From a virus (lineage: Duplodnaviria > Heunggongvirae > Uroviricota > Caudoviricetes): a DNA stretch of 35,721 nt. How positions within the stretch are numbered: the first letter of the stretch is position 1; every line of letters begins with the position of its first letter. The stretch lies in IMG/VR virus record IMGVR_UViG_2713896776_000006; one strand, written 5' to 3'. The position numbers were made by a program, and so were the translations under genes. Shown in pieces: positions 1-34,125 of the stretch. The notes under the pieces were generated by a model. It was not told the origin of the DNA. It was given only the letters and a program-made list of their open reading frames with translations, and searched no databases.

Positions 1-318
1 ATGAAAAAGATAGCTGCTATATCATTAATTAGTATTTTTATTATGTCTGGTTGTGCTGTGCATAATGATGAGACAAGTATCGGTAAATTTGGTCTTGCAT
101 ATAAAAGTAATATTCAGCGTAAACTCGATAACCAATACTACACCGAAGCCGAAGCTTCTTTAGCCAGGGGTAGAATATCTGGTGCAGAAAATATAGTAAA
201 AAATGATGCAACTCATTTCTGTGTTACTCAGGGCAAAAAAATGCAAATAGTTGAGCTGAAGACAGAAGGTGTAGGATTACATGGTGTCGCTCGTCTGACA
301 TTCAAATGTGGAGAGTGA
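1..318 (+). CDS. Small putative lipoprotein (host flank, left of prophage)
   Basis: 105-aa ORF with N-terminal signal-peptide-like hydrophobic segment and lipobox-like MSGC. Lies outside the att repeat. Size and position relative to yegQ/cyaR are consistent with E. coli yegR, but that is from memory of K-12 synteny, not verified. Confidence 0.55.
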   Translation: MKKIAAISLISIFIMSGCAVHNDETSIGKFGLAYKSNIQRKLDNQYYTEAEASLARGRISGAENIVKNDATHFCVTQGKKMQIVELKTEGVGLHGVARLTFKCGE

Positions 319-4166: not shown

Positions 4167-6432
4167 AGCCTCCGGGCGTTTTGTCCCTCCGTCAGCATTT
4201 GCCGCAGGCACCGGTGAGACGTTTACCGGTGCTTATGCATGGAACGCGCCACGCGAGGCCGTCGGGCGCGAAAGACCCCTTACACGTGACGAGATGCGTC
4301 AGGTGCAAGGTGTTTTATCCACGATTAATCGCCTGCCTTACTTTTTGCGCTCGCTGTTTACTTCACGCTATGACTACATCCGGCGCAATAAAAGCCCGGT
4401 GCACGGGTTTTATTTCCTCACATCCACTTTTCAGCGCCGTTTATGGCCGCGTATTGAGCGCGTGAATCAGCGCCATGAAATGAACACCGACGCGTCGTTG
4501 CTGTTTCTGGCAGAGCGTGACCATTATGCGCGTCTGCCGGGGATGAATGACAAGGAGCTGAAAAAGTTTGCCGCCCGTATCTCATCGCAGCTTTTCATGA
4601 TGTATGAGGAACTCTGCGATGCATGGGTTGATGCACATGGCGAGAAAGAATCGCTGTTTACAGATGAGGCGCAGGCGCATCTGTATGGTCATGTTGCTGG
4701 CGCTGCACGTGCTTTCAATATTTCCCCTCTCTACTGGAAAAAATACCGTAAAGGACAGATGACCACGAGGCAGGCATATTCTGCCATTGCCCGTCTGTTT
4801 AACGATGAGTGGTGGACTCATCAGCTTAAAGGCCAGCGTATGCGCTGGCATGAGGCGTTACTGATTGCTGTCGGGGAGGTCAATAAAGACCGTTCTCCTT
4901 ATGCCAGTAAACATGCCATTCGTGATGTGCGTGCACGCCGCCAGGCAAATCTGGAATTTCTTAAATCGTGTGACCTCGAAAACAGGGAAACCGGCGAGCG
5001 CATCGACCTTATCAGTAAGGTGATGGGCAGTATTTCTAATCCTGAAATTCGCCGGATGGAGCTGATGAACACCATCGCCGGTATTGAGCGTTACGCCGCC
5101 GCAGAGGGTGATGTGGGGATGTTTATCACTCTGACCGCGCCGTCAAAGTATCACCCGACACGTCAGGTCGGAAAAGGCGAAAGTAAAACCGTCCAGCTAA
5201 ATCACGGCTGGAATGATGAGGCATTTAATCCAAAGGATGCGCAGCGTTATCTCTGCCGCATCTGGAGCCTGATGCGCACGGCATTCAAGGATAATGATTT
5301 ACAGGTCTACGGTTTGCGAGTCGTCGAGCCACACCACGACGGAACGCCGCACTGGCATATGATGCTTTTTTGTAATCCACGCCAGCGTAACCAGATTATC
5401 GAAATCATGCGTCGCTATGCGCTCAAAGAGGATGGTGACGAAAGAGGAGCCGCGCGAAACCGTTTTCAGGCAAAACACCTTAACCGGGGCGGTGCTGCGG
5501 GATATATCGCGAAATACATCTCAAAAAACATCGATGGCTATGCACTGGATGGTCAGCTCGATAATGATACCGGCAGGCCGCTGAAAGACACTGCCGCGGC
5601 TGTTACCGCATGGGCGTCAACGTGGCGCATTCCGCAATTTAAAACGGTTGGCCTGCCGACAATGGGGGCTTACCGTGAACTACGCAAATTGCCTCGCGGC
5701 GTCAGCATTGCTGATGAGTTTGACGAGCGCGTCGAGGCTGCACGCGCCGCTGCAGACAGTGGTGATTTTGCGTTGTATATCAGCGCGCAGGGCGGGGCAA
5801 ATGTCCCGCGCGATTGCCAGACTGTCAGGGTCGCCCGTAGCCCGTCGGATGACGTTAACGAGTACGAGGAAGAAGTCGAGAGAGTGGTCGGCATTTACGC
5901 GCCGCATCTCGGCGCGCGTCATATTCATATCACCAGAACGACGGACTGGCGCATTGTTCCGAAAGTGCCGGTCGTTGAGCCTTTGACTTTAAAAAGCGGC
6001 ATCGCCGCGCCTCGGAGTCCTGTCAATAACTGTGGAAAGCTCACCGGTGGTGATACTTCGTTACCGGCTCCCACACCTTCTGAACACGCCGCAGCAGTGC
6101 TTAATCTGGTTGATGACGGTGTTATCGAATGGAATGACACGGAGGTCGTGAGGGCGCTCAGGGGGGCATTAAAACACGACCTGAGAACACCAAATCGTCA
6201 GCAAAGAAACGGAAGCCCGTTAAAACTACATGAAATTGCACCATCGGCCAGACTGACCCGGTCGGAAAGAATGCAAATTACCCGTATCCGCGTTGACCTT
6301 GCTCAGAACGGTATCAGGCCGCAGCGATGGGAGCTTGAGGCGCTGGCGCGTGGCGCGACCGTAAATTATTACGGGAAATATTTCAATTATCAGGTCGCTG
6401 ATGAGTGGCCTGGATTTTTGTTACCCATTTGA
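4156..6432 (+). CDS. A: Replication initiation protein A (rolling-circle nickase)
   Basis: About 758 aa from the first in-frame ATG (a TTG at 4147 would give 761 aa, the P2 gpA length); position after orf83; large basic replication protein typical of P2 gpA. Start uncertain by about 3 codons. Confidence 0.88.
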   Translation: MAVKASGRFVPPSAFAAGTGETFTGAYAWNAPREAVGRERPLTRDEMRQVQGVLSTINRLPYFLRSLFTSRYDYIRRNKSPVHGFYFLTSTFQRRLWPRIERVNQRHEMNTDASLLFLAERDHYARLPGMNDKELKKFAARISSQLFMMYEELCDAWVDAHGEKESLFTDEAQAHLYGHVAGAARAFNISPLYWKKYRKGQMTTRQAYSAIARLFNDEWWTHQLKGQRMRWHEALLIAVGEVNKDRSPYASKHAIRDVRARRQANLEFLKSCDLENRETGERIDLISKVMGSISNPEIRRMELMNTIAGIERYAAAEGDVGMFITLTAPSKYHPTRQVGKGESKTVQLNHGWNDEAFNPKDAQRYLCRIWSLMRTAFKDNDLQVYGLRVVEPHHDGTPHWHMMLFCNPRQRNQIIEIMRRYALKEDGDERGAARNRFQAKHLNRGGAAGYIAKYISKNIDGYALDGQLDNDTGRPLKDTAAAVTAWASTWRIPQFKTVGLPTMGAYRELRKLPRGVSIADEFDERVEAARAAADSGDFALYISAQGGANVPRDCQTVRVARSPSDDVNEYEEEVERVVGIYAPHLGARHIHITRTTDWRIVPKVPVVEPLTLKSGIAAPRSPVNNCGKLTGGDTSLPAPTPSEHAAAVLNLVDDGVIEWNDTEVVRALRGALKHDLRTPNRQQRNGSPLKLHEIAPSARLTRSERMQITRIRVDLAQNGIRPQRWELEALARGATVNYYGKYFNYQVADEWPGFLLPI

Positions 6433-6690: not shown

Positions 6691-6723
6691 GCAAAAAAAC
6701 CACCCTGGCAGGTGGTTTTTTTG
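6691..6723. terminator. Bidirectional rho-independent terminator (accacc-ctggca-ggtggt between A-run and T-run)
   Basis: Seen directly: A7 - 6-bp GC-rich stem - 6-nt loop - stem - T7. Lies downstream of A (plus strand) and of the small minus-strand ORF. Confidence 0.6.
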
Positions 6724-6848: not shown

Positions 6849-7420
6849 ATCTCCTCCTGTAAGCAGAGGGCAATTTCCGCCGATATATGCGCTTCTGAGG
6901 CGGAGTTACTATTTAGCGAAGTCTTGCCCTGAAATAATGCTCTGTTTAAACGCAAAGTGATCTGGCATATCACCGAACAGAGAGCCTGAACAACACAACA
7001 TATAGTATGTCGTTGTTTCTGGTTGCATTTTATGTTGTGTAATACTGGTTTTGCATCAAGGATGTTTGAGCTTTTTTTGATATAGCTCAAAGTAAAAAGC
7101 AGGGACTACGGATGATAAGGTATTGAAAGCAATGTAAATTTTTTAAAGTTATTGGTGGCTAAAAAATGCACAGTTTCAATATGGCGGACTTAAATAAGCA
7201 ATTAAAAAAGTCATAAATATCACTAAAATCATGGTGTTACGTTTTTTTTGTGGGAGCTGCGGTGACGCTTAAGTTGATTTGTCATTAAATAAGCCGTGCA
7301 TGCAACAAGTGAATGTTTTTGCATGCGTCGGGGATGCCCGTTCCAGCTGCTCGCGGTCAGAGCTGGTGCGGATCCATAGTATCTATGCAACTGCATTAAA
7401 ACCGCCACATGAAGCGGGCG

Positions 7421-7499: not shown

Positions 7500-9974
7500 A
7501 TGAAATCCCACTTAATTTATATGATAGGTTTTATAATGGATATTAATTTTACAGAGTTGATTATTAGCAAGCAAACTATTGATTATGCTAAACTAGTTAC
7601 AAATATTTGTTCTGGAAAGGCAATGTTGTTTTTGGGGGCGGGTTTCTCTAAAGAAGCTACGAATATTAATGATACTAATCCTTCTTCTTCAATAGAGCTA
7701 TCTCATATATTATGTGGTCTTTGTTCAATACCTAAAAATGATAATCTACGCTTTTCTTCTGATTATTACTTAGCAAAAAACTCGTCATTAAAATTAATAG
7801 AACTATTAATTTATAATTATTCTATAAAAACAACATCGGAGAACCAAAATATAATCGCATCGCTACCATGGAAACGTTGTTACACAACTAATTATGACCG
7901 ATGTTTTGAGATCGCAGCTGAATCATCCGGTAATAAATTCGAAACTATAGATCTTGAGCATAAAACAAAGGAATATTATAAGCGCAAGAATTTATGTATT
8001 CATCTTAATGGTTCAATTAATAATATTTCTACTGAAACGCTTGATGATTCATTCAAACTTTCTGATTCATCTTATTCAAGCCCTGACTCTTTTACTGACT
8101 CTGAATGGTTCTATTATTTTAAAAGAGATTTAGATAGGTGTGGCGCGATCGTTTTTATCGGTTATTCAATGTATGATATTGAAATAAAAAAAATCCTTTC
8201 TACCTTACCTCAATTAAAAGAGAAAACATTTTTTGTAACTAGTCTCAATCCTGATATCGAATTAGAATTTACTCTAGAAAAATTCGGTACCGTTTTGCCT
8301 ATAGGTTTGAGTGGTTTTGCCAATAGAATAAGAGATAATATTACTTCAGTATCAGAAGAGCAGGAGTATAAGCTACAGTCACTTTTTCTTCATGATATAA
8401 CCAATGAATCAAGTTCTATTAGAGATGAAGAGGTTGAAAAAATGTTGATGTATGGTGATTTGGATGATCATCATATTGATAATTTTATACTTGGTAATAC
8501 TAAGGTACCGTTTTTAGTAAAAAGAAGTGAAATTGATAAAGCTGTTTCATTAATTGAACAATCAAAAAATGTAATTATTTATTCGGCGCTTGGAAACGGA
8601 AAAACCATCTTATTGAAAGAGCTAAGGAGTGTTTTATCCGTCGGTGGTTATGATGTTTATACAGTGGCCGATATAGATGGTGATTTTATATCAGATATTG
8701 ACTATATAGCACAATCATCCATGAAAAATATCATATTACTTGATGGGTATGAGAAGAATCTTGAATTAATGGAACATGTGGGCAGAGCTGCTTACGAAAA
8801 TGTACTAATACTTGCTACTGCCCGTGTTGCAGATCATGAATATCACAGAGATGATTTGGAGCGCATAAAATTCAAATATTCTGAAATAAATATTGATATG
8901 TTAGATGAGGTAGAGTTAAAAGATTTTTCAAAAATAATAGATAACTTAGGTCTTTGGGGAGATAATGCAGGGCTTAGTGTAGAGCAAAAGGTAAGATATT
9001 TAGCTAATGAGAATAACAGTCAATTCTCAATTGCATTGCTTACTCTTTTGGAGTCGCCGCAAATAAAAAATAAGATAAGTGATTTAATTACCGGGATTAA
9101 AAAGAGTAAGAGTCATGAAAACACAATTATTTCAATTTGTCTTTGTCAAATACTTGGCATTGAAACGAATCGAGGGATTATATCTGATCTTGCAGGCAAT
9201 GATTTGATTTATGATCCGGATTTTACTAATAACAGTGCGTTTAAGGCAATATTTAATTTCCATGGCGGTAGGATCATTAACGGGTCTAGTTTATTTTGCA
9301 TACATCTAATAAAAAATAATTTCACTCCTACTGTTATTATAGAGCGAATGCTTACTATTGCATCAAGGTTTAATCAATTAAACTCTAAGGATTATGAACA
9401 GGATAGAATATTTAAAGCTATGCTCAGGTTTTCTTTTGTTGAGCAGCTGCTTCCTGAAAGTATGAAAATATCAACGCTACAACGATATTATGAAAAGTTA
9501 AAAATTGAAGTTCCATGGCTAAATTCAAACCCACACTTCTGGTTGCAATACGCAATGTGTTTTATTGCTTACAAAAATTACCCAAAAGCACAACAGTATA
9601 TTGACCAGGCATATGCGTTAGCTGAAAAGCGAGCAAAATATCACACGAACAATATTGATACCCAGCAAGCAAAAATATATTTGCTTTCAAGCGAAAAGAT
9701 ACCAGATGGTAATATTGTATTCTCTAATTTCGAAAAGGCAAACAACCTTCTTAGTAATTTGGATGTGGATATTTACTCTCTGAGGCAGTTTTCGAGATAT
9801 AAAGATTTTCATTTGTCAAATTACAATAAGCTATCGAAGAGTAATAAAGTTAAATATATGGAAGCATGTAAACAGTCTTTAAATAAAATATCTGAATATG
9901 AAGGAGATGGCGGCGTAAGTCAATCATATGTTGCTAAAGTGATTGAAATATTAAAGCATATTACAAAGGTATAA
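7500..9974 (+). CDS. Candidate anti-phage defence protein: N-terminal SIR2-like (SIR2_2-type) NADase domain fused to a P-loop NTPase and a C-terminal helical domain
   Basis: Long uninterrupted ORF (824 aa from the first ATG; track ORF starts at 7467 with TTG). SIR2-family motifs in canonical order: LFLGAGFS, CYTTNYD, IHLNGS, VFIGYSMYD. Downstream a Walker A-like SALGNGKT, Walker B-like NIILLDGYE, then ILATAR. Strongly AT-rich relative to flanking phage genes. Located at the P2 tin/old variable locus between cos and Q. Confidence 0.7.
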   Translation: MKSHLIYMIGFIMDINFTELIISKQTIDYAKLVTNICSGKAMLFLGAGFSKEATNINDTNPSSSIELSHILCGLCSIPKNDNLRFSSDYYLAKNSSLKLIELLIYNYSIKTTSENQNIIASLPWKRCYTTNYDRCFEIAAESSGNKFETIDLEHKTKEYYKRKNLCIHLNGSINNISTETLDDSFKLSDSSYSSPDSFTDSEWFYYFKRDLDRCGAIVFIGYSMYDIEIKKILSTLPQLKEKTFFVTSLNPDIELEFTLEKFGTVLPIGLSGFANRIRDNITSVSEEQEYKLQSLFLHDITNESSSIRDEEVEKMLMYGDLDDHHIDNFILGNTKVPFLVKRSEIDKAVSLIEQSKNVIIYSALGNGKTILLKELRSVLSVGGYDVYTVADIDGDFISDIDYIAQSSMKNIILLDGYEKNLELMEHVGRAAYENVLILATARVADHEYHRDDLERIKFKYSEINIDMLDEVELKDFSKIIDNLGLWGDNAGLSVEQKVRYLANENNSQFSIALLTLLESPQIKNKISDLITGIKKSKSHENTIISICLCQILGIETNRGIISDLAGNDLIYDPDFTNNSAFKAIFNFHGGRIINGSSLFCIHLIKNNFTPTVIIERMLTIASRFNQLNSKDYEQDRIFKAMLRFSFVEQLLPESMKISTLQRYYEKLKIEVPWLNSNPHFWLQYAMCFIAYKNYPKAQQYIDQAYALAEKRAKYHTNNIDTQQAKIYLLSSEKIPDGNIVFSNFEKANNLLSNLDVDIYSLRQFSRYKDFHLSNYNKLSKSNKVKYMEACKQSLNKISEYEGDGGVSQSYVAKVIEILKHITKV

Positions 9975-9975
9975 T

Positions 9976-10003
9976 AAAAAAGGCCGCTCTGCGGCCTTTT
10001 TTA
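9976..10003. terminator. Bidirectional rho-independent terminator between convergent defence gene and Q
   Basis: aaaaa-aggccgc-tct-gcggcct-tttttt seen directly after the defence ORF stop and after the Q stop on the opposite strand. Confidence 0.65.
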
Positions 10004-10007
10004 TAGG

Positions 10008-21680: not shown

Positions 21681-23975
21681 ATGAGCACGAAATTTAAAAC
21701 CGTTATCACTACTGCCGGAGCCGCGAAGCTGGCAGCCGCCACTGTTCCCGGCGGGAAAAAAGTAAACCTGTCTGCAATGGCCGTGGGTGACGGTAATGGC
21801 AAATTGCCGGTGCCGGATGCCGGTCAGACGAAACTGGTGCATGAGGTCTGGCGTCACGCTCTGAATAAAGTCAGCGTGGATAACAAGAATAAAAACTATA
21901 TCGTGGCTGAACTGGTTGTACCGCCCGAAGTGGGCGGCTTCTGGATGCGTGAGCTTGGCCTGTACGATGATGCGGGAACGCTAATTGCCGTGGCGAACAT
22001 GGCCGAAAGTTATAAACCCGCTCTTGCCGAAGGCTCAGGGCGTTCGCAGACCTGCCGCATGGTCATCATCGTCAGCAGTGTGGCCTCAGTGGAGCTGACC
22101 ATTGACACCACAACGGTGATGGCGACGCAGGATTACGTTGATGACAAAATTGCAGAGCATGAACAGTCACGACGTCACCCGGACGCCTCGCTGACCGCAA
22201 AAGGTTTTACTCAGTTAAGCAGTGCGACCAACAGCACGTCTGAAACACTGGCCGCAACGCCGAAAGCGGTAAAGGCCGCCTATGACCTTGCTAACGGGAA
22301 ATATACTGCGCAGGATGCCACCACGGCGCGAAAAGGCCTTGTTCAGCTCAGTAGTGCGACCAACAGCACGTCTGAAACGCTCGCCGCAACGCCGAAAGCG
22401 GTAAAGGCCGCCTATGACCTTGCTAACGGGAAATACACTGCACAGGACGCCACCACCGCGCGAAAAGGTCTTGTCCAGCTCAGTAGCGCCACCAACAGCG
22501 ATTCTGAAACGCTTGCGGCAACACCAAAGGCGGTTAAGACAGCGTATGACCTTGCTAACGGGAAATACACTGCACAGGATGCCACCACGGCGCGAAAAGG
22601 TCTTGTCCAGCTCAGTAGCGCCACCAACAGTGATTCTGAAACCCTCGCGGCAACGCCAAAAGCGGTGAAGTCTGCCTATGACAATGCTGAAAAACGTCTT
22701 CAGAAAGATCAGAACGGTGCGGATATTCCGGGAAAGGATACCTTCACGAAAAATATCGGTGCCTGTCGTGCTTATAGCGGCGCTTTGAGCACTGAAGCCG
22801 GAAACTGGACAACCGCTCAGTTTATTGAATGGCTGGATTCCCGTGGTGCATTTAATCATCCGTACTGGATGTGCAAAGGCTCCTGGTCATATGCAAATAA
22901 CAAAATCATTACGGATACCGGATGTGGTGATATCCACCTGGCTGGTTGTGTCGTCGAAGTCATGGGAACAAAATCTGCAATCACTATTCGAGTGACCACG
23001 CCGACAACATCAAGCGGTGGCGGTACAACCAGCGCGCAATTCACTTACATTAATCATGGGGACGGCTACTCCCCCGGCTGGCGTCGTGACTGGAATCGTC
23101 AGGGCGACGCAATGACCGGAACGATTAATCAGGATGGCGGAAGCCAGAATGCCTATATGTCTACGGCCTTATGTTCAGGCACCAGAGGCGGCAAAAAATA
23201 TCTCAGAAAGTTTCGTGGTGGAGAAGGAGACACTATCTGGCATGAAACAGTGCAGGGCGGGGTAATTCGCTGGGCGACAGGAAACTATGACGATCAGGAA
23301 GAATTATCACTCAGCTCCGCTTATGGTCTCCGTTCTAGAGGTGAAATTACATCACTCAGTGCTAATGGTCTGCGCATTGCTTATGGCAATTATGGATTCT
23401 TTATCAGGAATGATGGCGGCAGCACATATTTAATGCTGACGGCCTCTGGCGATAAATTTGGGACATGGAACGGTTTAAGACCGCTGACTATCAATAACGC
23501 TAATGGCGGAGTGTCAATGGGGCATGGCCTGAGTGTTACTGGTGATATTGCCTCAAGTACCAAAGTACGCGCCGGTAGCGGGAAAAAGTTCACGGTCAGC
23601 AGCAGTAATACATCCACGAAGGAAGCCGCATTCAATTTGTGGGGAAACTCAAGTCGTCCGGTGGTGGCTGAATTAGGTGATGATGCAGGCTGGCATTTTT
23701 ACAGTCAGAGAAATACAGATAACAGCATCACTTTTGCTGTTAACGGTCAGGTATCACCATCTAACTATAGTAATTTTGATTCCCGTTATGTACGCGATAT
23801 CCGGCTTGGGACTCGAGTTGTCCAGACCATGCAGAAAGGGGTGATGTATGAGAAAGCAGGGCACGTAATTACCGGGCTTGGTATTGTCGGTGAAGTCGAT
23901 GGTGATGACCCCGCAGTATTCAGACCAATACAAAAATACATCAATGGCACATGGTATAACGTCGCACAGGTGTAA
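21681..23975 (+). CDS. H: Tail fibre protein (longer than P2 gpH; contains internal tandem repeats)
   Basis: 764-aa ORF between I and G; conserved N-terminus, repeated SSATNS..TLAATPKAVK..YDLANGKY motif, divergent C-terminal (receptor-binding) half. Confidence 0.9.
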   Translation: MSTKFKTVITTAGAAKLAAATVPGGKKVNLSAMAVGDGNGKLPVPDAGQTKLVHEVWRHALNKVSVDNKNKNYIVAELVVPPEVGGFWMRELGLYDDAGTLIAVANMAESYKPALAEGSGRSQTCRMVIIVSSVASVELTIDTTTVMATQDYVDDKIAEHEQSRRHPDASLTAKGFTQLSSATNSTSETLAATPKAVKAAYDLANGKYTAQDATTARKGLVQLSSATNSTSETLAATPKAVKAAYDLANGKYTAQDATTARKGLVQLSSATNSDSETLAATPKAVKTAYDLANGKYTAQDATTARKGLVQLSSATNSDSETLAATPKAVKSAYDNAEKRLQKDQNGADIPGKDTFTKNIGACRAYSGALSTEAGNWTTAQFIEWLDSRGAFNHPYWMCKGSWSYANNKIITDTGCGDIHLAGCVVEVMGTKSAITIRVTTPTTSSGGGTTSAQFTYINHGDGYSPGWRRDWNRQGDAMTGTINQDGGSQNAYMSTALCSGTRGGKKYLRKFRGGEGDTIWHETVQGGVIRWATGNYDDQEELSLSSAYGLRSRGEITSLSANGLRIAYGNYGFFIRNDGGSTYLMLTASGDKFGTWNGLRPLTINNANGGVSMGHGLSVTGDIASSTKVRAGSGKKFTVSSSNTSTKEAAFNLWGNSSRPVVAELGDDAGWHFYSQRNTDNSITFAVNGQVSPSNYSNFDSRYVRDIRLGTRVVQTMQKGVMYEKAGHVITGLGIVGEVDGDDPAVFRPIQKYINGTWYNVAQV
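22200..22690 (+). repeat. About 3.7 tandem copies of a 132-nt (44-aa) repeat inside H
   Basis: Repeat unit KG(F/L)(T/V)QLSSATNS(T/D)SETLAATPKAVKAAYDLANGKYTAQDATTAR seen three times in full plus a partial fourth copy; period measured as 132 nt (22203 to 22335). Confidence 0.85.
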
Positions 23976-23978
23976 TTT

Positions 23979-24506
23979 ATGCAACATTTAAAAAATATTA
24001 CTGCGGGTAATCCAAAAACTGTTGCCCAATATCAACTGACAAAAAATTTTGATGTTATCTGGTTATGGTCCGAAGAGGGAAAAAACTGGTATGAGGAAGT
24101 AAGTAATTTTCAGGAGGACACGATAAAGATTGTTTACGACGAGAATAATATAATTGTCGGCATCACCCGAGATGCTTCAACGCTTAACCCTGAAGGTTTT
24201 AGCGTTGTTGAGGTTCCTGATATTACTGCCAACCGACGTGCTGATGACTCAGGTAAATGGATGTTTAAGGATGGTGCCGTGATTAAGCGGATTTATACGG
24301 CAGACGAACAGCAGCAACTGGCAGAATCACAAAAGGCAACTTTGCTTTCCGAAGCCGAATCCGTGATTTTGCCGCTGGAGCGCGCTGTCAGGCTGAATAT
24401 GGCAACAGATGAGGAGCGTAGCCGACTGGATGCATGGGAGCGTTACAGCGTTCTGGTCAGTCGTGTGGATCCTGCAAATCCTGAATGGCCGGAAATGCCG
24501 CAATAA
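23979..24506 (+). CDS. G: Tail fibre assembly chaperone
   Basis: 175-aa ORF immediately after H; same length as P2 gpG. Confidence 0.9.
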
Positions 24507-24752
24507 GTTGTATGAGCTCTGGTGTGAGCTTACATATCTATGGCACAGAGTAAAGACTAATCTGACAGTCCGCTCTGTGCCAGAAGCGGACCTTCCAACA
24601 AGCTATATAGGAGCTAAAAAATCCTCATTGATCCAGGCTTTGAGCTTGTAAATTACCATTCCTAAAAGTTACATAATAAGTTCTATAATGTGTAGCATGG
24701 ATGATTAATATAGTTGTTTTAAGTTAAGTCCCTACAGGATATGGAGTTTTTT

Positions 24753-25205
24753 ATGTTACAACAACTGGCCTGTGAGTTTTTTATTGAGTTTTCACGATAT
24801 GAATATTGCCTTAAGGCATGTGGGATTTTAATCAATGGAGGCCATTTAAAAGCTGACTGGAATGGATATTCCGATCAGGTGCGTGACGTTATCGAAAACC
24901 CGTCTACCCCTAAACTTAATGAAGCGATTCATTACTTCGAAGAGCATCCCCCTAAAAAACAGATTTACGGTGAAAAAGGGATCATGTGGTCGGAAAAACT
25001 ACCGAGTTCCCGGCACCGGGCTGAACTAATTTTACTGCTGGTCTGTCGAGTAAGAAACAATCTCTTTCACGGCGGAAAATTCAATGGTAATTGGTTTGAA
25101 CCGGAACGCAGTGAGCAGTTAATCCGGCACGCCCTCACCATCCTACGGGCCTGTGCGGAGAAACACGCCGGAGTGAAAGATGCCTATGAGAACAAACACT
25201 TCTGA
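24753..25205 (+). CDS. Cargo hypothetical protein with HEPN-like Rx4-6H motif (RVRNNLFHGG)
   Basis: 150 aa from the ATG preceded by GGAG with 6-nt spacer (track ORF starts 4 codons earlier). AT-rich. Only a single short motif supports the HEPN idea. Confidence 0.5.
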   Translation: MLQQLACEFFIEFSRYEYCLKACGILINGGHLKADWNGYSDQVRDVIENPSTPKLNEAIHYFEEHPPKKQIYGEKGIMWSEKLPSSRHRAELILLLVCRVRNNLFHGGKFNGNWFEPERSEQLIRHALTILRACAEKHAGVKDAYENKHF

Positions 25206-25311
25206 GACGGGTCACTGCTACAACCCAGCCCATAACGGCAACTCTGACAGAATCATTAAAGGTTACTAGTACATTAAAAGAAATCGCTAAAGCAGTCGGA
25301 TTTATGTCTAT

Positions 25312-25357
25312 GGGGAGCAGGTCAAGACGAAGCTAGCCCTGCTCCCCGTGATTTTTA
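25312..25357. terminator. Bidirectional terminator-like hairpin between convergent cargo genes
   Basis: 10-bp stem ggggagcagg/cctgctcccc with 16-nt loop, followed by gtgattttta. Confidence 0.5.
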
Positions 25358-25383
25358 TATACCCACCACGGAGGCATTAGGCC

Positions 25384-26109
25384 CTATTGCCTTTTTTTCA
25401 GGTCATCAAGAATGCTCTGCTTTTCGGCAACCAACATTTTGTACACATCATCATCACTTTTAAGATTAAATTTGAAATGCGATCGTCCCACAGATATGCC
25501 GGATACGCCTTCAATCCACATATCCTTGGCTATTTTTTCATCTGAGTCATCTAGGGCATTTTCAGAAATCTTATCAAGGGATGAGAGGATATCCCCATGC
25601 AACTGTAACAATTTTTTATATGTGATTGATGGCGAATTTTCCTTCCTCCGAGAGATCAAGCTTAGATCATTAATCTGGGCGTTAACGCGATCAATAATAC
25701 CAAAAACTCCTAAGCGAGCCTCAACTGACTTGCGCTCAGATTTATGTTTTGCGCCTGTTTGAAATAACAGCTCGGAGTTAATATACGAACCTAGATCATG
25801 TGCATCTTTCACCATGGTTCTAACACCCTCACTAAAGTGTGGGTATCCGATAACTAGCCCCCCCAGTAGTGGGATGATCTTACCGTAAGCGGTGATTTTC
25901 GCGATGATTGAGCCTTCAGAGAACTCAACTGTTATCTCTACCTCACTTCCAATAAAAAAAGGTATTCGGCTCTTCGCAAAGGCAGTTATTTGCTTCTCAA
26001 TCTCATTGATTCTTAGTTTCTTATCTTGAGGGGTCGCATTTTTTAACCACTCAGGATTAACATGAACATACGATTGAGAAATGATATTCCCTGATACATA
26101 GTTTGCCAT
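25384..26109 (-). CDS. Cargo hypothetical protein (241 aa), unknown function
   Basis: ORF with GGAG SD 5 nt upstream of ATG; AT-rich; no motif I can assign. Confidence 0.6.
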   Translation of the reverse strand: MANYVSGNIISQSYVHVNPEWLKNATPQDKKLRINEIEKQITAFAKSRIPFFIGSEVEITVEFSEGSIIAKITAYGKIIPLLGGLVIGYPHFSEGVRTMVKDAHDLGSYINSELLFQTGAKHKSERKSVEARLGVFGIIDRVNAQINDLSLISRRKENSPSITYKKLLQLHGDILSSLDKISENALDDSDEKIAKDMWIEGVSGISVGRSHFKFNLKSDDDVYKMLVAEKQSILDDLKKRQ

Positions 26110-26292
26110 TCTTACTCCATTAACAAGTTACTTTAGCCACCTAGTAATACCCCTAATTTCAGGAGATATCGATATCATTCGCAACGATTGACCTGTTCCC
26201 AGTTGATTGATACACGACATTGTGAGCAAGATCTATGGCAACTCAAGTACGAACGTCTGCTGATCGCTCAGAGCGGACGGCCTTCGTGGAAG

Positions 26293-27102
26293 TTAGTCTT
26301 GTTGTGGTGGCTCTTTCCAGCGCCATTGCAAGACATTCTCATCGCTGAGAATAAACAGTCCTGACCAAATTGCCGTCCAAAACTGGACATTCAGACACCA
26401 TGGGCGTGTCATAAACCAGCGTAACGGTTTTGCTTCAAACAGATGAATACCTTTTCGCGATGGTGAATATAACGGGGGGCGTCCCACTAACGGCAGACAA
26501 AAGCCCCATTTCCAATATTCAGCAATACGCCTTCGGGCAAATTCAATTGCATTACAGTTCCAGATGATACCCCAACGCCGTTTCCATGTATCATTGAGAC
26601 ACCAGTTTTGCATTAGCGAATATTTGGGCGAATTGTCAATAGATATACTTTCACCAGTCATTAAATTTATCGTGCAATATTTTAACTGGTACTGTTCAAC
26701 CGTAAATGCGAATCCATCATCTAGAATAAGTACATCAAGTGTAGGAATATTTGAAAGCGTTAATATTATCGGTGAGTTATTTACATCATGAATGCATAGT
26801 GTTTCTTGGTAGCGTAAGCCACTGCCAATGGCTTCAAAAACAAGTTCAACTTGTTGCAGTGGTTCCTCTTTGCTTCTGAAAGCAATACGTGAACAACGAG
26901 GTTCTTTATCTGTCAACTGAGCAAATCGTAGACTGTACTCCAAATAATTCCCTAAGGAATGCCAGCTCGCCCCTAGCCTGTGTCTCACTGCCCAGCGCTC
27001 ATGTGAGAGTTGATAAGTTTTTATCAGCATTATCTGGGTAAGAGTAGACCAGCATTTCTTCACTACTGTAACAATTGCACCAAAAGGAACAGGAAGTGAC
27101 AT
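26293..27102 (-). CDS. Cargo hypothetical protein (269 aa, Trp-rich), unknown function
   Basis: ORF upstream of and co-oriented with the 241-aa gene (183-bp gap); weak GGGG SD; AT-rich; start uncertain (alternative internal Met). Confidence 0.5.
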   Translation of the reverse strand: MSLPVPFGAIVTVVKKCWSTLTQIMLIKTYQLSHERWAVRHRLGASWHSLGNYLEYSLRFAQLTDKEPRCSRIAFRSKEEPLQQVELVFEAIGSGLRYQETLCIHDVNNSPIILTLSNIPTLDVLILDDGFAFTVEQYQLKYCTINLMTGESISIDNSPKYSLMQNWCLNDTWKRRWGIIWNCNAIEFARRRIAEYWKWGFCLPLVGRPPLYSPSRKGIHLFEAKPLRWFMTRPWCLNVQFWTAIWSGLFILSDENVLQWRWKEPPQQD

Positions 27103-27361
27103 TACTAAACCCCTACAAATATCAGATAATTAGGTTTTATATCATTTCAGTCAGTGTAATCAAATGATAATCAGGATTGGGGCTAATCTTGAACGCCACT
27201 AAAGATCGGCAACAATGGGGATCCAATGTTTCGTTAGTGATTTTTCGCATTAGCAGATACATGCTTACTTCCGCTCCTCGCTCAAAGCAGACTGTCAGAT
27301 TTGATAGCGTTTGGGCTATGTAAATTGTCAGTTGGAAAATGAGTGAGTGCAAATCAGGACA

Positions 27362-27388
27362 GGCGGGCGAATTGCCCGCCTTTTCTTT
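27362..27388 (+). terminator. Terminator-like hairpin (ggcgggc-gaatt-gcccgcc-tttt) upstream of FI
   Basis: 7-bp GC stem with 5-nt loop and T-rich tail seen directly; would insulate the FI late promoter from cargo-island transcription. Confidence 0.4.
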
Positions 27389-27484
27389 ATCTGTTGTTTC
27401 ATCCACTGACCAGCCAGGTCAAATAGCGTCTCATGCTCTGCACAACAGAAAATAGTTGCACCCATTAACCACGGAGTTAAACGG

Positions 27485-28675
27485 ATGAGTGACTATCATC
27501 ACGGCGTGCAGGTGCTGGAGATTAACGACGGCACCCGCGTCATTTCCACCGTATCCACCGCCATTGTCGGCATGGTCTGCACGGCCAGCGATGCGGATGC
27601 GGAAACCTTCCCCCTCAATAAACCGGTGCTGATTACCAATGTGCAGAGCGCAATTGCAAAGGCCGGTAAAAAAGGCACGCTGGCGGCATCGTTGCAGGCC
27701 ATCGCTGACCAGTCAAAACCGGTCACCGTTGTCGTGCGCGTGGAAGACGGCACCGGCGACGACGAGGAAACGAAACTCGCGCAGACCGTTTCCAATATCA
27801 TCGGCACCACCGACGAAAACGGTCAGTACACCGGACTGAAAGCCCTGCTGGCGGCGGAGTCGGTAACCGGTGTTAAACCTCGCATTCTCGGCGTGCCGGG
27901 ACTGGACACCAAAGAGGTGGCGGTTGCACTGGCATCAGTCTGTCAGAAGCTGCGCGCTTTCGGGTATATCAGCGCATGGGGCTGTAAAACCATTTCCGAG
28001 GTGAAAGCTTACCGCCAGAATTTCAGCCAGCGTGAGCTGATGGTCATCTGGCCGGATTTCCTCGCATGGGATACGTTCACCAGTACCACTGCCACCGCGT
28101 ATGCCACCGCCCGTGCGCTGGGTCTGCGTGCCAAAATCGACCAGGAGCAGGGCTGGCATAAAACGCTGTCCAACGTCGGGGTGAACGGTGTTACCGGCAT
28201 CAGCGCATCTGTATTCTGGGATTTGCAGGAGTCCGGCACCGATGCTGACCTGTTGAACGAGTCAGGCGTCACTACGATTATTCGCCGCGACGGTTTCCGA
28301 TTCTGGGGTAACCGTACCTGCTCTGATGACCCGCTGTTCCTCTTTGAAAACTACACCCGCACCGCGCAGGTGCTGGCCGACACGATGGCTGAGGCGCACA
28401 TGTGGGCGGTGGACAAGCCCATCACCGCAACGCTGATTCGCGACATCGTTGACGGCATCAATGCCAAATTCCGTGAGCTGAAAACAAACGGCTATATCGT
28501 GGATGCGACCTGCTGGTTCAGCGAAGAATCCAACGATGCGGAAACCCTCAAGGCCGGAAAACTGTATATCGACTATGACTATACCCCGGTGCCTCCTCTC
28601 GAAAACCTGACCCTGCGCCAGCGTATTACTGATAAATACCTGGCAAATCTGGTCACCTCGGTTAACAGCAATTAA
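27485..28675 (+). CDS. FI: Contractile tail sheath protein
   Basis: 396-aa ORF; same length and order as P2 gpFI. Confidence 0.95.
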   Translation: MSDYHHGVQVLEINDGTRVISTVSTAIVGMVCTASDADAETFPLNKPVLITNVQSAIAKAGKKGTLAASLQAIADQSKPVTVVVRVEDGTGDDEETKLAQTVSNIIGTTDENGQYTGLKALLAAESVTGVKPRILGVPGLDTKEVAVALASVCQKLRAFGYISAWGCKTISEVKAYRQNFSQRELMVIWPDFLAWDTFTSTTATAYATARALGLRAKIDQEQGWHKTLSNVGVNGVTGISASVFWDLQESGTDADLLNESGVTTIIRRDGFRFWGNRTCSDDPLFLFENYTRTAQVLADTMAEAHMWAVDKPITATLIRDIVDGINAKFRELKTNGYIVDATCWFSEESNDAETLKAGKLYIDYDYTPVPPLENLTLRQRITDKYLANLVTSVNSN

Positions 28676-29538: not shown

Positions 29539-29690
29539 CGTTCCCGAAAAATCTCTCGGTCGATGACCTGATGGCGGATGTGGCAGTGATATTTCACTGG
29601 CCGCCATCAGAACTGTATCCCATGAGCCTGACCGAACTCATCACATGGCGCGAAAAGGCGCTCCGGCGAAGCGGAAACACGAATGAGTAA
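29263..29690 (+). CDS. Tail assembly chaperone E+E' (predicted -1 programmed frameshift product)
   Basis: TTTTTTG heptamer at 29511..29517 near the end of E; the -1 frame stays open to a TAA at 29688..29690 overlapping the T start, giving about 142 aa as in P2 E+E'. Confidence 0.6.
29511..29517 (+). promoter_or_regulatory. Slippery heptamer TTTTTTG (candidate -1 ribosomal frameshift site)
   Basis: Seen directly; conserved mechanism for tail chaperone pairs (P2 E/E+E', lambda G/GT). Confidence 0.6.
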
Positions 29691-34097: not shown

Positions 34098-34125
34098 AAA
34101 GCCCCTCAGTCGAGGGGCTTTTTTG
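34098..34125 (+). terminator. Rho-independent terminator after ogr
   Basis: gcccctc-agtc-gaggggc followed by tttttt, seen directly. Confidence 0.7.

Follow-up and report, generated by a model that had tools for sequence, protein, structure and literature searches.

What marks the edge of the variable island between the late genes G and FI of P2-like phages? We addressed this question in a 35,721-nucleotide (nt) stretch of viral DNA (Caudoviricetes; IMG/VR record IMGVR_UViG_2713896776_000006), hereafter called the window, in which two overlapping inverted repeats (dyads 1 and 2) follow directly on the tail fibre assembly gene G. A preliminary description, made from the letters of the window, had placed these repeats at the junction between the late genes and an island of cargo genes, and had offered a recombination boundary, an RNA-processing site or a protein-binding site as their role. 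We consider it likely that dyad 1 is a conserved, sub-terminal, cis-acting hairpin in the left end of a 2.84-kb, transposase-less, transposon-like cassette, which sits as a fossil in P2 and whose cargo has been exchanged at its inner ends. The dyad itself is modest and lies inside a repeat that was annotated already in 2003-2004; the P2 repeats are not new.

Dyads and ends of the element

Both repeats are present in the window; the arms of the second are 7 nt long, and not 6 nt as first quoted. The two dyads overlap at 24573-24574, and dyad 1 starts 35 nt 3' of the TAA stop codon of G (24504-24506). The features on which the argument turns are the following.

24541-24582, plus strand: dyad 1, arms TGGCACAGAG (24541-24550) and CTCTGTGCCA (24573-24582), 10 nt each, 100% complementary, with a 22-nt loop
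24568-24591, plus strand: dyad 2, the inner 24-bp palindrome GTCCGCT-N10-AGCGGAC, adjoining the cargo
24509-24594, plus strand: L-type end, 86 nt, TGTATGAGCTC...AGCGGACCTT, the "left inverted repeat" of the P2 Z/fun region
27268-27351, minus strand: R-type end ("right inverted repeat"), which reads TGCACTCACTC...AATCTGACAGTCTGCTTTGAGCGAGGAGCGGAAG on the minus strand
24502-24508: left copy of a decayed 7-bp target-site duplication, AATAAGT, which includes the stop codon of G
27352-27358: right copy of the decayed target-site duplication, AATCAGG
27361-27391 (27359-27391 at its widest), plus strand: rho-independent terminator found by terminator scan, AGGCGGGCGAATTGCCCGCCT then TTTCTTTATC

The arms of dyad 2, GTCCGCT (24568-24574) and AGCGGAC (24585-24591), are separated by 10 nt. 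Dyad 1 consists of 11 pairs in most members of the family described below; the eleventh pair of the window, 24551/24572, is T.G. No T-run follows the dyad: the next letters are GAAGCGGACCTTCCAACA, and GAAGCGGACCTTCCAACAAGC comes after the stem. The element as a whole spans 24509-27351, lacks a transposase and has the layout G stop, L end, cargo, R end, terminator. Over its 86 nt the L end is 83.7% identical to the generic L-end consensus, and the inner 36 nt of the R end are 100% identical to the generic R-end consensus. The two copies of the target duplication agree at 5 of 7 positions.

Perfect 10-mer inverted repeats with loops of 3-40 nt occur 16 times in the window, at 9 loci, compared with 1.8 ± 1.9 in first-order Markov simulations of the window. 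Since one or two such dyads are expected per window by chance, dyad 1 alone is statistically unremarkable; it is real by conservation, not by chance rarity. RNA folding, which the preliminary description had proposed as a check, set the region apart from shuffled sequences: the 121-nt region folded better than its shuffles on both strands (z = -3.5 on the plus and -3.2 on the minus strand). Folded as single-stranded DNA, the L end of the window gave z values of -3.2 and -3.45, and the R end -1.6 and -1.0. Further perfect inverted repeats of at least 10 nt with short loops lie elsewhere in the window, at 381-413, 6692-6723, 9974-10004, 29568-29610 and 34098-34121. Several of these are flanked on either side by A/T runs and probably act as bidirectional terminators.

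The repeats belong to an insert

We collected 80 IMG/VR contigs through the tail sheath protein FI, which is 86-99% identical in them and matches the annotation of P2 (NC_001895). The layout of the window recurred in 47 of the 80; together with the window these represent 48 distinct inserts with 33 unrelated cargo groups. Common to all 48 are a left block from 24507 to about 24594 (ending in ...AGCGGAC-N-TT) and a right block from about 27268 to 27358 (starting at about ..TCCGCT), and on both sides similarity among the inserts breaks off within about 3 nt of the same positions. The proposal that the dyad might mark the conserved edge of the variable locus across P2-like phages is thereby confirmed, as it is kept in all 47 related contigs in front of 33 different cargo sets.

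The empty sites place the repeats on the insert side of this edge. In four contigs with the same G allele (L010, L034, L042 and L072), the G stop is followed after 2 nt by a terminator hairpin, ACAGGCGGGC...TTTTCTTT or ACAGGCGGGC..GCCCGCCTTTTCTTT, with neither repeats nor cargo. The 7-mer at the empty site is AATAAAT in L010, L034 and L072, and AATAAAT or AATAAAC across all four contigs. About 18 further contigs carry other tail-fibre modules and no trace of the repeats. Because the empty-site relatives lack repeats and cargo alike, the repeats belong to an insert between the G stop and the operon terminator. The first placement of the dyad was accurate in position, exactly at the edge of the G-FI island, and needs one correction: the dyad does not belong to the late-gene backbone. 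Sites without both repeats rule out a backbone origin. The terminator at 27361-27391 is the original terminator of the V-W-J-I-H-G operon, parted from G by the element.

Cargo was not found in both orientations: no minus-strand cargo match of at least 150 nt occurred among the 48 islands. We rejected an invertible segment of the Gin/Cin/Hin type on this ground and for want of a recombinase open reading frame (ORF) in 24595-27267. A separate arrangement was seen in L040, in which two opposite G-like tail fibre assembly genes, 5515-6036 (plus strand) and 6628-6056 (minus strand), lie upstream of FI without family repeats; the pair may be an invertible or duplicated tail-fibre module.

The ends match the annotated Z/fun repeats of P2

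Ten GenBank records (AJ512676-85, "P2-ECxx proviral Z-region") label the homologous positions 3..115 "left inverted repeat". Window 24507-24594 is 86-98% identical to the start of AJ512676-AJ512685, and in a blastn search with 24507-24740 query positions 1-84 to 1-100 aligned with these records at 86-95% identity. On the other side, window 27271-27361 corresponds to the annotated 91-nt "right inverted repeat" in front of FI (AJ512680, 3166-3256). The left and right copies are inverted relative to each other: the reverse complement of 24529-24590 aligns with 27270-27331, with 26 of 31 positions identical in a 31-nt core and an alignment score of 47 versus 20.9 ± 4.0 for shuffled sequences. More than 60 P2-like phages resemble the window from G to about 24591-24594, where the similarity ends. 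Both features that define the left inverted repeat of the P2 Z/fun region, a homologous start at the end of G and an inverted partner before FI, were found. Because the P2 records annotate the homologous repeat, the dyad of the window is part of a described feature, identical in sequence and place and likewise enclosing foreign variable genes.

The P2 Z/fun repeats and records AJ512676-AJ512685 reportedly stem from Nilsson, Karlsson and Haggard-Ljungquist in 2004 (Mol Biol Evol 21:1). Beyond the annotation, sequence comparison appears to add the empty sites, the TGTAT termini with 7-bp duplications, the L-specific hairpin, the R-side terminator and the composite islands with internal end remnants. 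A description of the family as a transposon was not found by keyword or repeat text in the searchable literature, which did not cover Nilsson et al. 2004 itself.

The 234 nt of 24507-24740 also matched 24 records of phages that convert their hosts to production of Shiga toxin (Stx1a or Stx2c); the matched part is probably the L-type end. The same search returned 24 records at 60-80% identity, which may be those of the Stx phages.

A family of asymmetric ends outside P2

The ends are not confined to P2-like phages. An exact 22-mer from the inner end matched 23 species-representative genomes, and in 22 of them no P2 tail gene was present within the 8 kb examined; the genera included Morganella, Pantoea, Erwinia, Xenorhabdus, Yersinia, Pectobacterium, Klebsiella, Kosakonia, Acinetobacter, Neptunicella and others. 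When aligned, the copies form a unit of 86 nt that begins sharply at TGTATTAGCTCAG... on the outside and stops just as sharply at ...AGCGGAC-R-TT on the inside. All copies open with TGTAT(T/G)AGCTC, and the sequence outside is unrelated between loci. L and R ends share their outer 20 nt and the inner ATCTGACAG...AGCGGAC, and differ in the middle.

Complete pairs of ends are flanked by perfect 7-bp direct repeats, among them GCTAACT, CACTATT, GCTAATA and CTTAATA. With more than 120 further viral contigs, the sample grew to 29 pairs, every one of which joins one L-type to one R-type end. The target duplications were perfect in 14 of these pairs (9 distinct sequences), 6/7 in three and 5/7 in another three; about 0.002 perfect duplications would be expected by chance. 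Sharp inverted termini, a target duplication of fixed length and empty sites, which are among the marks of a transposon, are all present.

The elements are 731-6257 bp long, and 28 of the 29 contain one to seven ORFs of at least 90 amino acids (aa); the remaining one (L190, 1295 bp) has none at this cutoff. Their cargo is diverse. It includes pPIWI-associated nuclease and DUF4365 proteins, an outer-membrane protein accompanied by an MscS-like channel and a sulfatase-like enzyme, and a ClC channel, besides helix-turn-helix proteins and numerous proteins whose function is unknown. End pairs lie in plasmids, tRNA islands and lambdoid prophages. The R-end consensus occurs in 69 plasmids; of 5426 complete Escherichia coli genomes, 1364 contain it, 544 of them at a coverage of at least 80%. 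Relatives of the cassette bring accessory and defence genes to the phages, plasmids and genomic islands of many enterobacteria.

Of 44 distinct R flanks, 19 have a terminator-like hairpin directly outside the end, compared with 4 of 38 L flanks (Fisher p = 0.0012). In reconstructed target sites a rho-independent terminator starts 0-30 nt beyond the R end, and the first cargo ORFs mostly read from L to R. From this arrangement we infer orientation-specific insertion into the space between a gene and its terminator.

The search for a transposase was negative throughout its scope: none was found in the cargo ORFs of the 29 complete elements, among 630 clustered ORFs flanking 191 ends or 75 representative inward ORFs, through ends that share only the outer 19-mer (e.g. 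L160), or in annotated plasmid and E. coli contexts. The only transposases met in these searches belong to unrelated IS30, IS3 and IS5 insertions. As the elements encode no transposase, the family is non-autonomous.

Three further observations concern the surroundings of the ends. R ends stand directly downstream of island integrase genes in L229 (O157:H7, tRNA-Leu; 7001-7084) and L230 (O8:H28, tRNA-Gly; 7001-7086), and elements often adjoin P4-type or other tyrosine integrase genes of tRNA-linked islands (L229, L230, L093, L103 and L104). An insertion sequence (IS) of the IS30 family, with a 386-aa transposase and the inverted repeat TGTGAGTTCAACCG..., is inserted in family ends at one position, ...GTCTGCTTTGAGC|TGTGAG, close to the midpoint of the 24-bp inner palindrome. 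Copies occur in L088 (2418-3640), L084, L089, L091, L098, L100, L106 and L158, with a scar in L050 (about 140-165), and extend over at least eight genera, which suggests that this IS specifically targets the inner palindrome. Finally, about 58 IMG/VR loci, many of them near-identical contigs, carry a degenerate R-type end 21 nt from the end of a gene for a PilV-like protein of about 600 aa, a pilus tip of the shufflon type (e.g. L136, outer end at 6067; L199).

Conservation of dyad 1 in left ends

Across 35 distinct L ends, 84% of the cells of the 11-pair stem of dyad 1 were paired, compared with 23-46% when the partner columns were slid. At one pair, 19 sequences have G-C, 7 have C-G and 4 have G.U. 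The covariation score of the stem was reached by none of 500 shuffles, and RNAalifold independently predicted 8 of its pairs. Dyad 1 is confined to L-type ends and absent from R-type ends. For dyad 2, 69% of cells were paired, and two of its seven pairs are unpaired in 22-23 of the 35 L ends. Because it is so poorly paired across the family, the L-side palindrome is specific to the subfamily that contains P2; unlike this palindrome, the AGCGGAC arm and the cargo boundary are general.

Changes in the stem of dyad 1 led to G.U more often than to A.C (24 versus 13 on the top strand), a difference that is not significant (p = 0.10). A search of Rfam 15 at E <= 1 with both strands of 23900-27600 gave no match. 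Covariation within the P2-like phages alone was set aside: the 40 variants of the left repeat are too similar, with mostly disruptive or wobble changes, and no useful signal emerged until the wider family was included.

Turnover of cargo between constant ends

Sequence diversity locates the exchange. Within groups of P2-like phages with the same cargo, per-site diversity was 0.027 over the last 150 nt of G. For the L end it was 0.042 across the outer 40 nt and fell to 0.007 across the inner 48, with 0.006 in the cargo's first 112 nt. This drop within the repeat puts the left crossovers in the L end itself, close to the dyad's 5' arm; on the other side of the island the transition is located at the inner R end or within it. 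The outer parts of the P2-like ends show the same divergence from the family consensus whatever the cargo, and the site and the decayed duplication are likewise constant; this constancy speaks for one old insertion that has repeatedly received new content.

Junctions inside the islands may be products of site-specific exchange or of abutting ends that have decayed. Nine P2-like islands contain internal end remnants, and palindromic junctions of this sort were seen at window 26255-26281 and in L001, L051, L054/56 and others. Typical ones (L051, L054) consist of the inner palindrome of an R end, about 18 nt, and the inner palindrome of an L end; in L050 a generic R end whose terminus is intact lies within the island. 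The junction of the window is further reduced. In UPEC132 (E. coli), the first cargo segment of the window (cassette A) is followed by a complete R end; at window 26255-26281 only the inner palindrome is left, with two A-to-G changes in or beside its right arm, and then the second segment (cassette B) begins. Among 5426 E. coli genomes, the whole window cargo (A and B) was present at 80% or more in only five, all of which cover 100% of it. A further 231 hold less than 80% of the cargo, and among the matches listed (H223-H229) the match ends at window 26270-26278.

Exchange also crosses between P2 and the wider family, one P2 cargo gene sharing 82% identity over 1 kb with the cargo of an element outside P2 whose target duplication is perfect. 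At the non-P2 site CTATATC (L119, L135, L192 and L195), different cargo (1035, 1111 and 1916 bp) is enclosed by near-identical ends and an unchanged 7-bp duplication, and the same holds for the non-P2 site GCTAACT (L090 and L159; 4153 and 6257 bp). Because different cargo occupies each of these two sites, cargo turnover in fixed ends is not peculiar to P2. Collectively, these comparisons show that cassettes accrete and exchange at the inner ends, whether by homologous recombination over the 40-90-nt ends or by a site-specific enzyme that acts on the inner palindromes. The early suggestion of a recombination boundary was therefore essentially right, given that similarity ends within about 3 nt around 24591-24594 and that same-cargo diversity falls inside the repeat; taken as a whole, the preliminary interpretation is partly supported.

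Cargo and flanking genes of the window

The remaining parts of the locus are arranged as follows.

23979-24506, plus strand: gene G, tail fibre assembly, 175 aa, from the ORF list; adjoining backbone gene upstream, stop codon TAA at 24504-24506
24595-26254: cargo of cassette A, with ORFs 24741-25205 (plus strand, 154 aa) and 25384-26109 (minus strand, 241 aa)
25312-25347, followed by a T-run: convergent terminator hairpin in cassette A, between ORFs 24741-25205 and 25384-26109
26255-26281: internal R-end remnant of 27 nt, AAC GTCTGCT GATCGCTCAG AGCGGAC, at the junction of cassettes A and B
26282-27267: cargo of cassette B, with ORF 26293-27102 (minus strand, 269 aa)
27485-28675, plus strand: FI, the tail sheath gene (396 aa), which is the backbone neighbour downstream

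The DNA of gene G is 85.7-97.7% identical to Peduovirus tail fibre assembly genes, which are labelled G in P2, Wphi and L-413C. The cargo ORFs of both cassettes matched no family in Pfam, PADLOC or NCBIfam, although the NCBIfam result calls for caution because that database unexpectedly returned no family for FI and G either, well known as these phage proteins are. ORFs 24741-25205 and 25384-26109 of cassette A match PHROG 19013 and PHROG 31894, both of unknown function; ORF 26293-27102 of cassette B matched no PHROGs family. On account of where they sit, the three ORFs are candidates for uncharacterised lysogenic-conversion or anti-phage genes. The hairpin between the convergent ORFs of cassette A (25312-25360; GGGGAGCAGG-N16-CCTGCTCCCC then GTGATTTTTAT) is probably a terminator that would stop read-through from G and ORF 24741-25205. 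P2's own island contains a similar annotated terminator.

A probable fossil transposon end as proposed cargo platform

In the mechanism that we propose, the ends would be cis-acting sites for a DDE-type transposase that is supplied in trans and makes 7-bp staggered cuts; by TG termini and duplication length alone, enzymes of the IS21-like, IS481-like and Tn552-like kinds would be candidates. This enzyme would tell L from R, so that the element lands one way round between a gene and its terminator. The L-specific hairpin, with its 10-bp dyad, would contribute to the asymmetry of the ends and is the most obvious candidate for a mark of the L end; what part it plays in end recognition is a guess. 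The copy in P2 may be an immobile fossil that serves as a docking platform for cargo, to judge from its diverged outer termini, its 5/7 duplication and the one fixed site shared by all relatives. Its cargo would change in two ways: by the addition of cassettes, and by recombination within the ends, for the most part in their inner 40-50 nt, where the dyad region and the AGCGGAC boundary lie. Because cargo recombines within the ends, the dyad would mark the switch from backbone-linked to cargo-linked sequence.

Several points weigh against this interpretation. No transposase was found, and the case for transposition consists solely of the ends together with target duplications and empty sites. 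The duplication of the window agrees at only 5 of 7 positions and its R terminus is TGC, not TGT; with a decayed duplication and such a terminus, the window copy may never move. Among the 29 pairs, 15 have no perfect duplication, and a part of these may be mis-paired ends or rearranged elements. The covariation in dyad 1 comes largely from one pair, the seven C-G sequences of which perhaps reflect one event, and the other changes are one-sided or break pairs. The variety of cargo at the non-P2 sites could also result from repeated independent insertion at a preferred site, an explanation that fails for P2, because there the diverged outer ends are common to all cargo types.

A wider proposition, which we advance tentatively and would expect to fail somewhat sooner than to hold, is that the G-FI hotspot of P2 is one fossil of a widespread, unnamed family of non-autonomous cargo transposons. 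Its members would combine 86-nt asymmetric ends, 7-bp duplications and oriented insertion between gene and terminator with inner palindromes that act as exchange points, much like an integrase-less integron platform. Driven by a transposase and possibly a recombinase, they would be a common vehicle by which accessory and defence hotspots are seeded and refreshed, in P2-like phages as in lambdoid ones and also in tRNA-linked islands and in plasmids, among Enterobacterales and more widely.

Alternative explanations

The repeats might instead be targets of a dedicated site-specific recombinase of the tyrosine type, by which LxL and RxR exchange would swap cassettes without inversion. The recombination cores would be GTCCGCT-N10-AGCGGAC on the left and GTCTGCT-N10-AGCGGAC on the right, which can be read as 9-6-9 with different spacers. 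This is how we take the proposal that Nilsson et al. reportedly made in 2004. A review, too, states that the repeats "enable site-specific recombination" (PMC8987985). The sharpness of the boundaries (about 3 nt in 33 cargo groups) is what such an enzyme would produce, and so are the single cargo orientation and the union of one L with one R end in each pair. The internal junctions can be read in the same way: that of the window is a single palindrome whose left arm and spacer match the R end after cassette A in UPEC132 and whose right arm resembles an inward AGCGGAC end, and those of L051 and L054 retain just two inner palindromes about 18 nt apart. No recombinase is linked to the P2 locus, however, and the left-arm palindrome is missing from most L-type ends. 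The left crossovers lie around position 40 of the L end and are spread over the repeat rather than gathered at one point, and 40-90 nt of homology could support ordinary or phage-mediated homologous recombination. The P4-type integrase genes that often adjoin elements might point to a recombinase, but they may only reflect a preference for terminator-proximal targets. We therefore think a dedicated recombinase possible and on the whole unlikely; it is compatible with a transposon origin of the ends and would account for the layer of cargo exchange.

A function at the RNA level, with the hairpin as a protective 3' stem-loop or processing site of the G transcript or as an insulator of the cargo from read-through, appears improbable to us. 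The stem lies on the sense strand of G in a region with a plus-strand RNA fold of z = -3.5, the L end faces the upstream gene, and the native terminator has been displaced beyond the R end, 2.8 kb away. ERIC elements (enterobacterial repetitive intergenic consensus) have been reported to affect the stability of co-transcribed mRNA (PMC2229807). The tolerance of the stem for G.U over A.C (24 versus 13) would suit such a role, but the bias is not significant (p = 0.10), the region has no Rfam match and no U-tract, and the opposite strand folds equally well. Moreover, in L104 and in O157:H7 it is the R end, not the L end, that faces the neighbouring gene. A role in the 3' untranslated region of G is nonetheless possible in addition to a transposon origin, with which it is compatible.

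That the dyad is an operator for the regulator of an adjacent cargo gene, or a functionless product of chance, is very improbable: it does lie about 160-200 nt upstream of ORF 24741-25205, and one or two perfect 10-nt dyads are expected per window, but the same dyad precedes 33 unrelated cargo sets and recurs in non-P2 elements, and its pairing is kept in 84% of cells across 35 divergent ends. A weak or atypical terminator of the V-W-J-I-H-G operon, as a stable stem 35 nt after the last stop of the operon might suggest, is close to refuted, since the loop has 22 nt (10 nt in dyad 2) instead of the required 3-8 nt, no T-run follows, the scan of 23900-27600 made no call at the dyad (so that its dismissal as a classic intrinsic terminator in the preliminary description was borne out), real terminators lie downstream at 25312-25347 with its T-run and at 27361-27391, the annotated operon terminator of P2 (NC_001895) is inside the island and not at the repeat, and empty-site relatives terminate at the hairpin now found at 27361.

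Significance and relation to known systems

Anti-phage systems are known to be stored in P2-like phages and their satellites, where they are concentrated in a few hotspots. In their discussion, Rousset et al. 2022 (PMC9122126) state the mechanism of turnover at these hotspots to be open. If a resident transposon shell does underlie the G-FI island, gene turnover there would gain a concrete and testable mechanism. The 86-nt ends would then serve as a handle in searches for cargo, including new defence candidates, in phages, plasmids and islands, and there would be a transposition system yet to find that targets the space between gene and terminator in one orientation.

Like intrinsic terminators, repetitive extragenic palindromic (REP) sequences and ERIC elements, the dyad is a stem-loop right after the last gene of an operon. 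It differs in having no U-tract and a 22-nt loop, and in always being part of one of two paired 86-nt ends around cargo. No sequence relation to the ERIC or REP consensus is known beyond a 10-nt coincidence (GAGCTTACAT).

Integron cassettes with their attC sites, and the pdif modules of Acinetobacter, are arrays of unrelated genes, in promoter-poor or self-contained cassettes, with precise boundaries at imperfect palindromes. The present elements resemble them in their precise palindromic boundaries and perhaps in the palindromic junctions at window 26255-26281 and in L051 and L054. Unlike integrons, they have no integrase between G and FI, and their boundaries read GGAC-N-TT|cargo|AA-N-GTCC, with no RYYYAAC/GTTRRRY on inspection. 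Unlike pdif modules, which have 28-bp dif-like sites (11-6-11) at both cargo boundaries, they bear no resemblance by eye to the dif consensus, no pattern search having been made. They also differ from both in that the whole unit has transposon-type termini and target duplications.

Tn7 has TGT termini, distinct ends with repeated motifs, oriented insertion directly downstream of a gene, in its terminator or close to it (attTn7 after glmS), and a 5-bp duplication. Tn7-like transposons often carry defence genes, according to a cargo survey (PMC8649781). The family shares with Tn7 the TGT termini, the asymmetric ends with internal motifs, the oriented, terminator-proximal insertion and the defence cargo. 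Unlike Tn7, it duplicates 7 bp rather than 5, carries no tnsABC(D/E) or other transposition genes in its cargo, and measures only 0.7-6.3 kb. The ends of the family are not known to share sequence similarity with those of Tn7.

We know of no parent insertion sequence or transposase for the family. A classification as MITEs (miniature transposable elements with inverted repeats) was rejected, as sizes of 731-6257 bp and ORFs in 28 of 29 elements are at odds with a non-coding element of less than about 0.5 kb, and a mobile insertion cassette fits better. Mobile insertion cassettes and MITE-like transposons, such as MIC231 of Bacillus cereus, have terminal inverted repeats, a target duplication and passenger genes, lack a transposase and are presumed to be mobilised in trans. 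The family described here likewise has inverted termini, a target duplication and passenger genes without a transposase. It differs from mobile insertion cassettes in its long (86 nt), asymmetric ends with repeated sub-terminal motifs (ATCTGACRGT), in its apparently oriented insertion next to terminators, and in the exchange of cargo within fixed ends.

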